The notes beneath the pieces are model-generated. The model was not told the DNA's origin. It saw only the letters and a list, made by a program, of their open reading frames with translations, and did not search any database. Source: a phage. Taken from it: 64,000 nucleotides of DNA. The stretch's first letter is position 1. The number at the start of each line of letters is the position of its first letter. Below are positions 7,861 through 29,074 of the stretch, in pieces. The stretch lies in the sequence record PZ452582.1. One strand, 5' to 3'. The position numbers and the translations under genes are program-made.

Positions 7861-8334
7861 ATGAAAACATATCAAGAATTTATCACTGAAGCAGCTATTA
7901 ATTCTCAAATTATTGCTGAATCTTTTACTGATCTTTTGAAATTTAAAAAAGGTCAAAAAATCACTGCTGTATTGGATGATGGTACAGAAGTTGAGATGGA
8001 TGTACAGGGATATAATTATGCAGTAGATGGAAAACTGTATAATAAATCTCATGCTAAATTTGATTCATTTGACGACTTTGTTAATACAGTTGAAGATGAA
8101 AAAACTCGTAGATCCATTGCAACTGGTGATGCTAAGGTTCTTATGGCACATGGTCATGAACGCATTCGCGCTAAACAGAATAAAATGGGTGAAGATAATT
8201 TTGCATTAGTTGGTTATCAATCTGGTAAACAAACTTATGGCTATCAACGTACTGCTACCATGTATAATAAAAATGGTAAAATTGCCTTTGTGAATAGTAA
8301 GGGTTCTATTCAGTACGTTAAATCGTTCAAATAA
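7861..8334 (+). CDS. internal protein with capsid targeting sequence (IPII/IPIII family)
   Basis: N-terminus MKTYQEFITEA matches T4 internal-protein CTS; sits at the IP locus next to denV. Confidence 0.7.
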   Translation: MKTYQEFITEAAINSQIIAESFTDLLKFKKGQKITAVLDDGTEVEMDVQGYNYAVDGKLYNKSHAKFDSFDDFVNTVEDEKTRRSIATGDAKVLMAHGHERIRAKQNKMGEDNFALVGYQSGKQTYGYQRTATMYNKNGKIAFVNSKGSIQYVKSFK

Positions 8335-8468
8335 TATGGGAACAGCCTGGACCTCATTTGAGGTATTCCCGCCAACCTGTGATAAGGTCGAGCCAAAGCG
8401 CGGTAATGGGTAATGCAGGAATGGACAATTCATGCGCCACGGAATGGCCCAAATTTAGAGAGAATAAA

Positions 8469-9008
8469 ATGAGAACATTTTTAACTGGTCCTTATCTATC
8501 CCTGATGAATGCTTTTACACACCATTCTGACGCTAGAGTAGAAGAAATTTGTAAAAACGAATATATCCCGCCATTTGAAGAATTACTTAAACAGTACTGC
8601 ACACTTCGTATAGATGGTGGACGTCAATCCGGTAAATCAATTGCTGTGACTAACTTTGCTGCTAATTGGTTGTATGATGGCGGAACAGTTATTGTTCTTT
8701 CTAATACTTCAGCTTACGCTAAAATTTCTGCAAATAACATTAAAAAGGAATTTTCGCGTTATTCTAATGATGATATGCGTTTTCGTTTATTTACTGATTC
8801 TGTGCGCAGTTTTATTGGTAATAAAGGAAGCAAGTTCAGAGGTTTATCGCTTTCGCGAATTTTGTATATAATTGATGAGCCTGTCAAATCTCCTGATATG
8901 GATAAGATTTATAGCGTCCATATTGACACTGTACACTACTGCTGTAATAGTAAATGTTGCATTGGTGGTATTACTCGTCCACAGTTTTTCGTAATCGGAA
9001 TGCAATAA
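8469..9008 (+). CDS. hypothetical P-loop protein (179 aa)
   Basis: Walker A-like GGRQSGKS and Walker B-like LYIIDEP; track ORF extends upstream from TTG 8358 through a GC-rich leader. Confidence 0.5.
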   Translation: MRTFLTGPYLSLMNAFTHHSDARVEEICKNEYIPPFEELLKQYCTLRIDGGRQSGKSIAVTNFAANWLYDGGTVIVLSNTSAYAKISANNIKKEFSRYSNDDMRFRLFTDSVRSFIGNKGSKFRGLSLSRILYIIDEPVKSPDMDKIYSVHIDTVHYCCNSKCCIGGITRPQFFVIGMQ

Positions 9009-9334
9009 TGACAGACACACAGCTTTTCGAATATCTCTATTTTTCGCCAAAAACTATTAAAAATAAATTGGTAAATCATTTTGAAATTTTGGCAAATAAC
9101 AACATTTTAAGCGAATTTTATCCCAAGCAATACAAATTACAAAAAGGCGTATTCAAAGGATGCAGAGTTTTGTGCACTGCTCCTAACGCGCAGTTAATGA
9201 ATAAAATTCCATATTTTACCATGGAATTTATTGATGGACCTTTTAAAGGACTAATCACCCAAAGTTTAATGGCATATGATTCTGAGCCATTTTTAATTAA
9301 AGAACAATCTTGGATAAATTTATTTTCTAATTGA
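9008..9334 (+). CDS. hypothetical protein (108 aa)
   Basis: ATG overlaps upstream stop (TAATG); track ORF started earlier at a non-ATG codon. Confidence 0.5.
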
Positions 9335-9341
9335 GGTTTAT

Positions 9342-9704
9342 ATGAAAGCATATCAAATTCTTGAAGGCACACATAAAGGTACTATTTATTTTGAAGATGG
9401 TATTCAAGCACGAATTATTGTCTCTAAAACCTTTAAAGAGGACTCTTTTGTAGACCCGGAAATTTTCTACGGTTTGCATGCCCGTGAAATTGAAATTGAA
9501 ACACAACCTACAGTTAAAATTGAAGGTGGTCAACACCTGAACGTTAACGTTCTGCGTCGTGAAACTCTGGAAGATGCAGTTAAGCATCCGGAAAAATATC
9601 CGCAGCTGACCATCCGTGTATCCGGTTATGCAGTTCGCTTTAACTCTCTGACTCCGGAACAGCAGCGCGACGTTATCGCTCGTACCTTTACTGAGAGTTT
9701 GTAA
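9342..9704 (+). CDS. autonomous glycyl-radical cofactor, GrcA/YfiD-like (T4 Y06I-like)
   Basis: C-terminal 63 aa match recalled E. coli GrcA incl. RVSGYAVRF glycyl-radical motif; SD gagg. Confidence 0.85.
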
Positions 9705-9925
9705 TGGCAAAGATAATTATTGAAGGTTCTAAAGATGTGCTAAATGCTTTCGCCAAGTGGTTTAGTAATTCAGGCGAACAGCAATTTAACGAAGCCTGGA
9801 ATATGGGTGATATTGATGGAATTTATCCTACGACAGAAATTTCTGTTCAGGGATATGGCATTCATGAACCTATTCGTTTAGTTGAATATGATTTATGTAC
9901 TGGTGAGGAAGTCAAATATGATTGA
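9704..9925 (+). CDS. hypothetical protein (73 aa)
   Basis: ATG overlapping upstream stop. Confidence 0.5.
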   Translation: MAKIIIEGSKDVLNAFAKWFSNSGEQQFNEAWNMGDIDGIYPTTEISVQGYGIHEPIRLVEYDLCTGEEVKYD

Positions 9926-10184
9926 AGACATTAAAGGTTATAAGCCGCATACTGAAGAGAAAATCGGTAAAGTGAATGCTATCAAAGACGCTGAAGTTCG
10001 TTTAGGACTTATCTTTGATGCTTTATACGATGAATTTTGGGAAGCATTTGATAGCTGTGAAGATGATGAACTCGCGAAGAATTACGCCGAAAGCCTCGAT
10101 CAGTTAACTATTGCTAAAACGAAACTCAAAGAAGCTAGTATGTGGGCTTGTCGCGCAGTGTTCCAACCAGAGGAAAAATACTAA
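9918..10184 (+). CDS. hypothetical protein (88 aa)
   Basis: ATG 9918 with SD gagga; track ORF started at 9882. Confidence 0.5.
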
Positions 10185-10462
10185 TGGCTCAATTAAGCGC
10201 AGGGTTTGGTTATGAGTATTATACTGCCCCTCGTCGTGTATCTGTTGCTCCTAAGAAAATTCAAAGTCTTGATGATTTCCAGGAAGTAGTTCGTAACGCT
10301 TTTCAGGACTATGCACGTTATCTTAAAGAAGATTCACAGGACTGTCTCGAAGAAGATGAAATTGCTTACTATGAACAGCGTCTTGAACAGCTTAAAAACT
10401 TACATGAGGTTCGTGCAGAAGTTTCAAAGTCTATGAATAAATTGATCAGATTTAAAGAATAA
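10184..10462 (+). CDS. hypothetical protein (92 aa)
   Basis: TAATG overlap with upstream gene; SD gagga. Confidence 0.5.
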
Positions 10463-10465
10463 TTG

Positions 10466-10494
10466 TTTACTTTTCCTCTTGACTGTGGTATAAT
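10466..10494 (+). promoter_or_regulatory. early promoter (TTTACT-17-TATAAT)
   Basis: GTTTAC motif with consensus -10 upstream of regB. Confidence 0.75.
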
Positions 10495-10521
10495 TTTTCT
10501 ATCAGTTAAGAGGAGAATAAC

Positions 10522-10983
10522 ATGACTATCAATACAGAAGTTTTTATCCGTCGAAATAAGCTTCGTCGTCACTTTGAGTCGGAGTTTCGTCAAATTAACA
10601 ATGAGATTCGTGAGGCATCAAAAGCAGCAGGAGTCTCATCGTTTCATCTAAAATATTCTCAGCATCTTCTTGATCGCGCAATTCAACGGGAGATTGATGA
10701 GACATACGTTTTTGAATTATTCCATAAAATAAAAGACCATGTTTTAGAAGTTAATGAATTCCTGAGTATGCCTCCGCGTCCTGACATTGACGAGGATTTT
10801 ATTGATGGGGTTGAATATCGTCCTGGACGTTTAGAAATCACAGATGGAAATCTTTGGCTTGGATTTACAGTTTGTAAGCCTAATGAGAAGTTCAAAAACC
10901 CGTCACTTCAATGCAGGATGGCAATTATCAACAGTCGTCGTTTACCAGGAAAGGCTTCTAAAGCAGTAATTAAAACTCAATGA
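10522..10983 (+). CDS. regB: RegB site-specific endoribonuclease
   Basis: 153 aa, position between vs.x genes and vs, strong SD gaggag; matches T4 RegB size and context. Confidence 0.8.
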   Translation: MTINTEVFIRRNKLRRHFESEFRQINNEIREASKAAGVSSFHLKYSQHLLDRAIQREIDETYVFELFHKIKDHVLEVNEFLSMPPRPDIDEDFIDGVEYRPGRLEITDGNLWLGFTVCKPNEKFKNPSLQCRMAIINSRRLPGKASKAVIKTQ

Positions 10984-26786: not shown

Positions 26787-27260
26787 ATGTTATTGACTGG
26801 CAAATTATACAAAGAAGAAAAACAGAAATTTTATGATGCACAAAATGGTAAATGCTTAATTTGCCAACGAGAACTAAATCCTGACGTTCAAGCTAATCAC
26901 CTCGACCATGACCATGAATTAAATGGACCAAAAGCAGGAAAGGTACGTGGATTGCTTTGTAATCTCTGCAATGCCGCAGAAGGTCAAATGAAGCATAAAT
27001 TTAATCGTTCTGGCTTAAAGGGACAGGGTGTTGATTATCTTGAATGGTTAGAAAATTTACTTACTTATTTAAAATCCGATTACACCCAAAATAATATTCA
27101 CCCTAACTTTGTTGGAGATAAATCAAAGGAATTTTCTCGTTTAGGAAAAGAGGAAATGATGGCTGAGATGCTTCAAAGAGGATTTGAATATAATGAATCT
27201 GACACTAAAACACAATTAATAGCTTCATTTAAGAAGCAGCTTAGAAAGAGTTTAAAATGA
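26787..27260 (+). CDS. 49: endonuclease VII (Holliday junction resolvase)
   Basis: 157 aa; zinc-binding CLICQ...CNLC; matches recalled T4 gp49. Confidence 0.95.
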   Translation: MLLTGKLYKEEKQKFYDAQNGKCLICQRELNPDVQANHLDHDHELNGPKAGKVRGLLCNLCNAAEGQMKHKFNRSGLKGQGVDYLEWLENLLTYLKSDYTQNNIHPNFVGDKSKEFSRLGKEEMMAEMLQRGFEYNESDTKTQLIASFKKQLRKSLK

Positions 27261-29074
27261 CAATTGAAAAAGAAATTGAAGGATTGATTCATAAAACTAA
27301 TAAAGACCTTTTAAACGAGAATGCTAATAAAGATTCTCGTGTTTTTCCAACTCAACGGGACCTTATGGCTGGTATTGTGTCTAAACACATTGCCAAAAAT
27401 ATGGTCCCGTCTTTTATTATGAAAGCGCATGAAAGCGGAATTATTCATTTCCATGATATTGATTATTCCCCTGCTCTTCCATTTACTAATTGTTGTTTAG
27501 TAGATTTAAAAGGAATGCTTGAGAACGGATTTAAGCTTGGTAATGCACAGATTGAAACTCCTAAATCAATTGGAGTTGCTACTGCAATTATGGCACAAAT
27601 TACTGCACAGGTTGCTTCCCATCAATACGGCGGAACGACTTTTGCTAATGTAGATAAAGTACTTTCTCCTTATGTTAAACGCACCTATGCAAAACATATT
27701 GAGGATGCAGAAAAATGGCAAATCGCTGATGCGTTGAATTATGCTCAATCTAAAACAGAAAAAGACGTATACGATGCATTCCAAGCTTATGAATATGAAG
27801 TAAATACTCTCTTTAGTTCAAACGGGCAAACACCTTTTGTAACAATTACATTTGGTACAGGAACTGACTGGACTGAACGAATGATTCAGAAAGCAATTCT
27901 GAAAAATCGTATTAAAGGTCTCGGTCGTGATGGGATAACTCCTATTTTCCCTAAGCTTGTTATGTTCGTTGAAGAAGGTGTTAATCTTTATAAAGACGAT
28001 CCGAATTACGACATTAAGCAACTTGCTCTAGAGTGCGCAAGCAAAAGGATGTATCCTGATATTATTTCAGCTAAGAACAATAAAGCTATCACTGGTTCAT
28101 CTGTTCCTGTTTCTCCAATGGGTTGCCGTAGTTTCTTGAGCGTATGGAAAGATTCGACTGGTAATGAAATTCTTGATGGACGTAATAATCTTGGTGTTGT
28201 AACACTGAATCTTCCTCGCATCGCGTTAGATTCTTATATTGGAACACAATTCAATGAACAGAAATTTGTTGAGCTATTTAATGAACGAATGGATTTATGT
28301 TTTGAAGCTTTGATGTGTAGAATTAGTTCCTTAAAAGGAGTTAAAGCTACTGTTGCTCCTATTCTTTACCAAGAAGGTGCATTCGGGGTTCGTCTTAAAC
28401 CTGATGACGACATAATTGAGTTATTTAAAAACGGTAGAAGTTCAGTGTCTTTAGGATACATTGGTATTCACGAATTGAATATTCTTGTCGGTCGTGATAT
28501 TGGACGAGAAATTTTAACTAAAATGAATGCTCATCTTAAACAGTGGACTGAAAGAACTGGATTTGCTTTTAGTTTATATTCGACTCCTGCTGAAAACCTT
28601 TGTTATCGCTTCTGTAAACTCGATACAGAAAAATATGGAAGCGTAAAAGATGTTACCGATAAAGGCTGGTACACTAACAGTTTCCATGTTTCAGTAGAAG
28701 AAAATATTACTCCGTTTGAAAAGATTTCTCGCGAAGCCCCGTATCATTTCATTGCAACAGGTGGTCACATTTCTTATGTTGAACTTCCTGATATGAAAAA
28801 TAACTTAAAAGGTCTTGAGGCTGTATGGGATTATGCTGCACAACATTTAGATTATTTTGGTGTTAATATGCCAGTAGATAAATGTTTTACATGTGGAAGT
28901 ACCCATGAAATGACTCCTACTGAAAACGGATTTGTTTGTTCTATTTGTGGAGAAACTGATCCTAAAAAGATGAACACAATAAGAAGAACATGTGGTTATT
29001 TGGGAAATCCGAACGAACGCGGATTTAATCTCGGTAAAAATAAAGAAATCATGCATAGGGTTAAACACCAATGA
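27257..29074 (+). CDS. nrdD: anaerobic ribonucleotide reductase NrdD (class III, glycyl radical)
   Basis: 605 aa continuous ORF; C-terminal zinc ribbon CFTCGS...CSICG. Confidence 0.95.
   Translation: MTIEKEIEGLIHKTNKDLLNENANKDSRVFPTQRDLMAGIVSKHIAKNMVPSFIMKAHESGIIHFHDIDYSPALPFTNCCLVDLKGMLENGFKLGNAQIETPKSIGVATAIMAQITAQVASHQYGGTTFANVDKVLSPYVKRTYAKHIEDAEKWQIADALNYAQSKTEKDVYDAFQAYEYEVNTLFSSNGQTPFVTITFGTGTDWTERMIQKAILKNRIKGLGRDGITPIFPKLVMFVEEGVNLYKDDPNYDIKQLALECASKRMYPDIISAKNNKAITGSSVPVSPMGCRSFLSVWKDSTGNEILDGRNNLGVVTLNLPRIALDSYIGTQFNEQKFVELFNERMDLCFEALMCRISSLKGVKATVAPILYQEGAFGVRLKPDDDIIELFKNGRSSVSLGYIGIHELNILVGRDIGREILTKMNAHLKQWTERTGFAFSLYSTPAENLCYRFCKLDTEKYGSVKDVTDKGWYTNSFHVSVEENITPFEKISREAPYHFIATGGHISYVELPDMKNNLKGLEAVWDYAAQHLDYFGVNMPVDKCFTCGSTHEMTPTENGFVCSICGETDPKKMNTIRRTCGYLGNPNERGFNLGKNKEIMHRVKHQ

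Follow-up and report, generated by a model that had tools for sequence, protein, structure and literature searches.

The vs.6 gene (Y06I in phage T4) encodes a small glycyl radical protein. We analysed it in a 64,000-nucleotide (nt) stretch of phage DNA (sequence record PZ452582.1), referred to here as the window, in which it is located between vs.7 and vs.5 (Table 1). The local gene order (vs.8, vs.7, vs.6, vs.5, vs.4, vs.3, and regB) is that of phage RB14. Approximately 1.3 kb around vs.6 are 98–99% identical to many T-even phages (JK23, RB14, and RB51), and the vs.6 DNA of the window is 98–99.7% identical to that of RB14 and RB51. To judge from its sequence, the source phage is a T4-like Tequatrovirus. 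The same gene is labelled vs.6 in the RB14 record and, in many other phage records, autonomous glycyl radical cofactor. Its 3′ half contains 175 nt that are identical to the grcA gene of Escherichia coli. We regard it as likely that the radical-domain segment of an older phage homolog was overwritten here by E. coli grcA DNA, and that such copying from the host recurs.

Table 1. Coordinates of vs.6, its parts, and its immediate neighbours in the window.
Feature	Position	Strand	Basis
vs.6 (T4 Y06I) coding sequence; phage autonomous glycyl radical cofactor (GrcA/YfiD homolog), ATG start, 120 amino acids	9342..9704	+	RB14 annotation, Pfam, TIGR04365, PDB 6OWR
Shine-Dalgarno sequence GAGG, 5 nt before ATG; overlaps the vs.7 stop codon TGA (9332–9334)	9333..9336	+	read from sequence
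5′ part of vs.6, A/T-rich, diverged GrcA N-half	9342..9519	+	GC 0.337, GC3 0.20, hhalign, orthologous phage N-halves
Host-derived tract, 175 nt, equal to E. coli grcA gene positions 200–374 (SK1144/IAI1-type allele); glycyl-radical domain	9520..9694	+	alignment, composition
RVSGY glycyl-radical motif, residues 92–96; radical glycine G95 at 9624–9626, equivalent to GrcA G102 and PFL G734	9615..9629	+	translation, alignments to GrcA and PFL 697–759
Phage-type 3′ end: third base of Glu118 (GAG), AGT TTG, TAA	9695..9704	+	ungapped comparison
vs.7, upstream neighbour, PHROG of unknown function	9008..9334	+	RB14 gene order; no Pfam domain
vs.5, downstream neighbour, PHROG of unknown function	9704..9925	+	RB14 gene order; no Pfam domain

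The host-identical tract

Positions 9520–9704 of the window were found by blastn at the 3′ end of grcA in 5,426 of 5,426 complete E. coli genomes, with 98.4% identity in the best match. Ungapped comparison with E. coli grcA resolves this match into a perfect run of 175 nt (9520–9694, 175/175), which corresponds to GrcA codons 67–125, followed by three synonymous mismatches (9695, 9698, and 9699) in the final three sense codons and then a common TAA. There is no similarity beyond the stop codon. Throughout its 58 codons, the tract agrees with E. coli at every synonymous position. In the three terminal codons, the phage has GAG AGT TTG and the host GAA AGC CTG; these encode the same amino acids, the phage codons being richer in A/T. 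At position 9695, each of the 14 E. coli-phage copies examined has G, whereas the four E. coli alleles compared all have A (4/4). Escherichia phage OES_C-2 (locus L166, 1329–1685) has the E. coli bases at 9698 and 9699 and retains the phage G at 9695. The 5′ half of its vs.6 has an in-frame 6-nt deletion, with loss of one Glu-Ile repeat unit.

The switch from phage-type to host-identical sequence is located at 9519/9520, immediately after a block of mismatches (9516–9519) that reads AAAA in the phage and CGCG in the host. The fraction of guanine plus cytosine (GC) is 0.337 over 9342–9519 and 0.481 over 9520–9704, as compared with 0.341 for the whole window. At third codon positions (GC3), it is 0.20 in the 5′ part of vs.6 and 0.43 over codons 60–120, whereas GC3 in E. 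coli grcA is even along the gene (0.42 and 0.43 in the corresponding halves). vs.6 is mosaic in the sense that a segment with host-level identity and host composition lies between phage-type flanks within one reading frame. The first-pass annotation, made from the letters of the window alone, had noted a match of the C-terminal ~63 amino acids to GrcA including RVSGY, host-like codons and higher GC in the 3′ half, and a recent capture of host grcA DNA, all of which hold. The compositional switch that it described near 9513 is real as well, although its exact place is as given above. That annotation had pointed to nucleotide identity, relative to protein identity, as the check on capture, and at 175 of 175 nt this identity is clearly elevated.

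As a control, the entire window was compared with E. coli genomes by megablast. The tract was the sole chromosomal match within the 64 kb. The other match was a tRNA-Tyr region (1338–1430), 89.5% identical to tRNA-Tyr on some E. coli plasmids. Approximately 640 independent phage records, from Tequatrovirus and Mosigvirus, carry an E. coli-type tract with the same junctions. T4 itself has the host-type tract (98.9% identity to the E. coli 185-mer).

At the protein level, the last 61 residues of vs.6 (60–120), including the RVSGY motif, are identical to E. coli GrcA (61/61). The Pfam Gly_radical domain was detected on residues 60–101 (E 2e-18). The best match among solved structures is E. coli GrcA/YfiD (6OWR, E 5e-42), which covers the identical domain, followed by the C-terminus of pyruvate formate-lyase (PFL; residues 697–759, E 5e-26). 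With 120 amino acids, vs.6 fits the small stand-alone GrcA/YfiD class (~14 kDa, ~120–130 amino acids). For this family (TIGR04365, IPR011140), the NCBIfam equivalog cut-off is 170 bits. TIGR04365 scored 154.6 bits on residues 20–120 of vs.6 and 233.9 bits on E. coli GrcA. As in E. coli GrcA/YfiD (6OWR, TIGR04365, IPR011140), an N-half of ~60 amino acids in vs.6 is followed by a structured glycyl-radical domain of the PFL type with RVSGY. Unlike E. coli GrcA/YfiD, vs.6 sits in a virulent-phage operon and has an A/T-rich 5′ half, and its N-half is only ~28% identical and seven residues shorter.

The 5′ half of vs.6 and phage relatives of grcA

The comparison set consisted of 80 phage loci encoding relatives of vs.6 and ~160 bacterial grcA loci. 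The 5′ half of vs.6 has ~49% nucleotide identity to the 5′ half of E. coli grcA, and single-sequence Pfam and NCBIfam searches with the N-half alone returned no matches. Comparison by hhalign of only the phage and bacterial N-halves gave a colinear alignment with a probability of 96.4% (E 1.4e-9). Orthologous N-halves are present in Mosigvirus, in Jiaodavirus, in loci L009–L013 (tentatively CC31-like), and in the RB16-like group; the phage N-half of locus L026 is visibly intermediate between the phage and bacterial forms. Full-length vs.6-like genes occur in loci L009–L013 and in RB16-/RB43-like, T5-like, Vibrio, and giant phages. vs.6 has been listed among the few T4 open reading frames (ORFs) of unknown function that are kept in all T4-like genomes compared (Nolan et al. 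2006, PMC1524935).

The 3′ parts (tails) of these genes outside Tequatrovirus, Mosigvirus, and Jiaodavirus are 64–86% identical to any of the ~160 bacterial grcA genes, and the longest exact run is 53 nt. Relative to E. coli grcA, phages that lack the tract have 5′ parts (heads) with 42–54% identity and tails with 65–83% identity. By these comparisons, vs.6 is a phage homolog of grcA that is both old and full-length, and the part of the mosaic outside the tract is homologous to the host gene, as expected for a homologous exchange.

Several relatives in the comparison set have features of their own. In three RB16-/RB43-like loci (L014–L016), the last 61 residues are those of E. coli GrcA, and in two others (L017 and L018) they differ at two residues. 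The DNA of this gene in L014–L018 (1501–1863) is only 82–83% identical to E. coli, and GC is 0.48 in the tail and 0.41 in the head; this tail may stem from an earlier capture followed by drift. A phage contig from a human metagenome (L023, 1492–1893) encodes a GrcA-like protein whose N-half is much nearer to bacterial GrcA. Over 53 nt, its gene is an exact match to grcA in a metagenome-assembled genome of Haemophilus parainfluenzae (L143), and the two may represent a third exchanging phage–host pair. Shortened vs.6-like frames were seen in viral contigs (L028, 1501–1650, 49 amino acids; L036 and L038, 1450–1551, 33 amino acids), and these are apparent pseudogenes or sequencing frameshifts. T5-like phages (L044–L070) encode a GrcA-like protein of 122 amino acids whose N-half is different. 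The names ‘ribonucleotide reductase subunit’ and ‘2-ketobutyrate formate-lyase’, given to it in several GenBank records, look like mis-annotations.

Probable origin and recurrence of the tract

In E. coli, the tract sits at the conserved ung-grcA-eamB locus. Its identity to other bacteria tracks phylogeny, with 98.9% in cryptic Escherichia, 92.9% in Citrobacter, and 84% in Salmonella. The host composition of the tract, the conserved locus, and divergence in step with bacterial phylogeny indicate transfer from host to phage, and the donor would be E. coli in the strict sense, or Shigella.

Three other accounts of the identity were considered. The C-terminal domain is extremely conserved as a protein in all GrcA and PFL, and one could invoke purifying selection with convergent codon usage, or else host contamination or misassembly, in place of any transfer. 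We give this account next to no weight: RB16-like phages encode the same 61 residues at only ~83% DNA identity, Serratia and Erwinia encode identical residues at 85–89%, and the tract matches E. coli at every synonymous site. An assembly artefact is excluded because the ~640 independently sequenced phage genomes have the same junctions. Identity by itself carries no direction, so that a T-even phage might instead have been the source of the grcA 3′ half in E. coli. This is scarcely credible given the uniform GC3 of E. coli grcA and the discontinuous GC3 of the phage gene, the orthology of the tract over Enterobacterales with divergence following host phylogeny, and its presence at ung-grcA-eamB in every one of the E. 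coli genomes while phage relatives without it exist. The first-pass annotation had proposed a fusion of host sequence to a phage-derived N-terminus, that is, a new chimera made by illegitimate recombination between a grcA fragment and an unrelated phage sequence. The sharp switch in composition and identity at 9519/9520 and the failure of the N-half alone to match any Pfam or NCBIfam model are in keeping with such a chimera. It is nevertheless very improbable, as the phage N-half is itself a diverged GrcA N-half, homologous to and colinear with the bacterial one (hhalign 96.4%, E 1.4e-9), with intermediates such as L026, and as full-length vs.6 orthologs with phage-type 3′ halves occur in many T4-like and other phages. 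The homology of the N-half and the phage-type tails of the other lineages argue for homologous replacement inside an existing phage grcA homolog rather than fusion. The phage-type synonymous codons at 9695–9701, which specify the same final three amino acids as in the host, fit replacement within a homologous gene that was already there.

The first-pass annotation had treated the capture as a single event, but a capture of Klebsiella type is also found, in the Klebsiella phages of Jiaodavirus. The vs.6 gene of phage JD18 (L163, 1503–1666) has a 164-nt tract with three mismatches (98% identity) to a Klebsiella-type grcA, L176. L176 is a bacterial grcA from metagenomes; both of its flanks align with named Klebsiella and Raoultella loci, and its composition is uniform. 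Across the Jiaodavirus vs.6 genes (JD18, RCIP0102, and AM_K2; L163, L164, and L168), there are three to seven mismatches to L176, with a 101-nt exact run included, and two of the three internal differences of JD18 agree with another Klebsiella allele, L173. GC3 rises from 0.25 to 0.60 across the junction. On the left, the tract has the same boundary as in the window; on the right, it ends ~20 nt earlier. The Jiaodavirus 5′ half is saturated relative to the window (synonymous divergence, dS, 1.7). By sequence comparison, the Jiaodavirus tract is an independent second capture from host to phage, from Klebsiella-type grcA.

Within the E. coli phages, the window and Mosigvirus JS09 are saturated in the genes flanking vs.6 (dS of 1.7 for vs.7, 2.7 for vs.5, and 1.9 for regB), and similarity, both to E. 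coli and among phage genera, falls sharply at vs.5. In comparison with Mosigvirus, dS is 0.27–0.36 for the 5′ half of vs.6 and 0–0.05 for the tract (Fisher p = 0.005). Judged by synonymous divergence, the tract among E. coli phages is much younger than the surrounding phage DNA. Polymorphism of the tract in E. coli is found mostly at 9560 (T/C) and more rarely at 9545, 9542, and 9566. Both the T and the C allele at 9560 are found in Tequatrovirus as well as in Mosigvirus, and exact 81-mer matches among the ~640 phage records number 360 for the T allele and 53 for the C allele. The tract of phage F27 is exactly the K-12 allele; in the window, RB14, L005, and L008, it is exactly the SK1144/IAI1 allele. 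Most of the remaining variants in phage tracts are confined to one copy each, apart from 9623A, which RB3 and L006 share, and two different variants at 9602. Two of the three private variants in the tract of L003 carry the Yersinia grcA base, but these are third-position transitions and are no evidence for input from Yersinia, which we rejected. Escherichia phage EcNP1 (L167, 1317–1680) has nine tract differences from E. coli (dS 0.24), including 9545A and 9560C, and none of the ~160 bacterial grcA genes matches its tract better than E. coli (94.5%). The EcNP1 tract is either an old copy that has not been refreshed or one from an unsampled donor.

Exchange between the two phage genera has left its own mark at this locus. 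Positions 9160–9519 of the window (the 3′ end of vs.7 and the 5′ half of vs.6) are 80–93% identical to Mosigvirus loci L007, L008, and L165, as compared with 52–72% in the surroundings; dS to Mosigvirus is ~0.3 in this segment and at least 1.7 in the surrounding genes. A stretch of ~550 bp, with one end at the tract, seems to have passed between Tequatrovirus and Mosigvirus, and the shared tract may have served as a recombination anchor between the genera.

Repeated copying from host to phage is the favoured reading for the E. coli phages. The alternative is a single capture by an ancestral T-even phage and subsequent phage-to-phage spread to both genera, with T, C, and G at 9560 produced by mutation and the Klebsiella-type tract a separate single event. 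Several observations suit this alternative and weigh against repeated copying. The case for recurrence in the E. coli phages consists of a single shared polymorphic site together with the dS contrast, and the existence of a third phage allele at that site (9560G, in L007) allows for recurrent mutation at a mutable position. The left boundary at 9519/9520 and the G at 9695 are common to all 14 of the E. coli-phage copies examined, which also fits a single origin and later spread, and exchange between the genera did occur here, as the low dS of the 5′ half of vs.6 and the 3′ end of vs.7 attests. Tequatroviruses isolated on Yersinia, Hafnia, Citrobacter, or Salmonella keep the E. coli-type tract. 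A further point counts against our overall interpretation: vs.6 falls short of the NCBIfam GrcA equivalog cut-off (154.6 against 170 bits), owing to its diverged and shortened N-half.

On balance we consider a single capture unlikely. The tract is significantly younger than the adjacent 5′ half, and divergence resumes at most 9 nt to its left and at most 5 nt to its right. Because divergence resumes so near the edges, phage-to-phage transfer into a recipient without the tract would require the two crossovers to fall precisely on its edges. The only high-frequency polymorphism in the phage tracts is the only common polymorphism found in E. coli, and phages carry perfect copies of each of the two host alleles. 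Furthermore, Jiaodavirus shows that conversion of this gene from host to phage is repeatable. Going beyond repeated copying, we lean slightly toward the view that vs.6 and the host chromosome are still evolving in concert: as the two copies have a block of perfect homology in common, each infection could re-copy the current host grcA allele into the phage. If so, T-even phages would record their recent host species and even its allele, with E. coli-type tracts in Tequatrovirus and Mosigvirus and Klebsiella-type tracts in Jiaodavirus, and recurrent natural gene conversion from a chromosome to a virulent phage would be taking place in the T4 model system.

In the mechanism we propose, E. coli chromosomal grcA DNA would replace 9520–9694 by homologous recombination of the gene-conversion type. 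The left edge of the tract would be set where identity between phage and host falls from ~65–83% in the tail to ~42–54% in the head, at the AAAA/CGCG block, and the right edge would be the end of the gene, so that the tract covers exactly the part in which homeologous pairing is possible. We infer from these edges a signature of gene conversion. The tract would probably be re-copied repeatedly from host DNA, every infection being an opportunity for marker rescue. In marker rescue, T4 copies segments of homologous non-phage DNA into its genome. T4 reportedly recombines, by insertion or substitution, with homologous cytosine-containing DNA in the infected cell, a result said to come from Selick and co-workers in 1988. 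The mechanism would be alike in that the UvsX/UvsY machinery copies short homologous stretches of non-phage DNA. It would be unlike in its donor, which in the laboratory is a plasmid with cloned T4 DNA and for vs.6 would be host chromosomal grcA, in nature. Conversion driven by a homing endonuclease, which is frequent among T-even phages, was rejected, as no endonuclease gene adjoins vs.6: no HNH or GIY-YIG homing endonuclease was found beside it, vs.7 and vs.5 having no Pfam domain and the annotated RB14 neighbourhood having no seg or mob gene.

Function, precedents, and neighbouring genes

The function of the protein is already known. Passages of PMC8683613 that cite Wagner et al. 2001 (BBRC 285:456) state that YfiD and T4 Y06I both receive a glycyl radical from PFL activase and restore PFL that has been cleaved by oxygen. 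Residues 1–60 of YfiD are disordered and important for binding and activation, and residues 61–127 are structured and insert into PFL (PMC8683613). The recombination boundary in vs.6 coincides with this boundary between the disordered and structured parts of GrcA. Because the tract covers GrcA codons 67–125 and the structured part spans 61–127, the host-derived part of vs.6 is the structured radical domain, and the phage-specific part is the recognition half. The phage thus keeps its own version of the half reported to bind cleaved PFL and to aid efficient activation.

The host activase PflA would place the glycyl radical on the C-terminal domain of vs.6, which would then replace the C-terminal fragment that oxygen cleaves off host PFL. 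As for the physiological benefit to the phage, which is inferred, PFL repair would sustain fermentative supply of acetyl-CoA and ATP in microaerobic infection after host gene shut-off. Repair of glycyl-radical enzymes had been put forward in the first-pass annotation with both PFL and the phage NrdD as targets. The published biochemistry of T4 Y06I supports PFL. NrdD, which does lie within the window (27257–29074, Pfam NRDD), was rejected as a target for want of sequence support: vs.6 has no significant similarity to it (best E 2.7, outside the radical domain), and instead matches PFL 697–759 at E 5e-26.

Prior work has already established the gene vs.6, its family, and what the protein does biochemically. 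T4 Y06I is the same gene, in the same vs.8-vs.7-vs.6-vs.5-vs.4-vs.3-regB context and with no functional difference; what is added here is its evolutionary anatomy, namely, the 175-nt host-identical tract, the homology of the N-half to GrcA, and recurrent capture. An earlier description of the host-identical tract, of the parallel in Klebsiella phages, or of the sharing of host alleles was not found in the literature searched, outside of which key older papers lie.

Precedents come from cyanophages, whose psbA and hli auxiliary metabolic genes are said to have undergone intragenic recombination between host and phage, reportedly in work by Zeidner and colleagues in 2005 and Sullivan and colleagues in 2006. 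As in those genes, the phage version of a host metabolic gene is mosaic, with segments of host identity and host composition, through homologous recombination. Independent events in different phage–host pairs are found as well, as exemplified by Jiaodavirus JD18. In contrast to the cyanophage cases, vs.6 is carried by a virulent coliphage of the T-even type, which has modified cytosine and breaks down host DNA. Its tract forms one block on a single protein domain, with edges limited by homology, and the parallel captures from Escherichia and Klebsiella fell on one and the same segment.

Phages of the T4 type destroy the DNA of their host, and their genomes are, to our knowledge, textbook cases of an essential lack of host homology. 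A perfect 175-nt copy of chromosomal sequence is the sole such piece in 64 kb of a T4-type genome. If exchange is ongoing, natural recombination from a chromosome to a virulent phage would be directly measurable at this gene, and the tract might serve to trace which hosts therapeutic T4-like phages have recently used. In that event, filters for contamination and the binning of metagenomes could flag phage contigs or split them at the tract.

Among the neighbours of vs.6, vs.5 overlaps it, the final A of the vs.6 TAA (9704) doubling as the A of the vs.5 ATG. A scan of 8300–10600 for promoter and terminator consensus sequences gave only background-level matches, and no separate vs.6 promoter was found upstream. 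vs.6 is probably transcribed within the plus-strand run vs.8-vs.7-vs.6-vs.5. Elsewhere in the window, positions 759–1776 contain 11 tRNA genes (Gln, Leu, Gly, Pro, Ser, Thr, Met/Ile-like CAT, Tyr, Asn, His, and Arg). A local GC peak (~0.47) at 8320–8480 falls in the 5′ extension of the listed vs.8 ORF (8358–9008) and has no match in E. coli. By correspondence with RB14, the likely start of vs.8 is at ~8439, and the peak is assigned to the extension upstream of this start. Related phages diverge steeply upstream of ~8280, in the internal-protein variable region.

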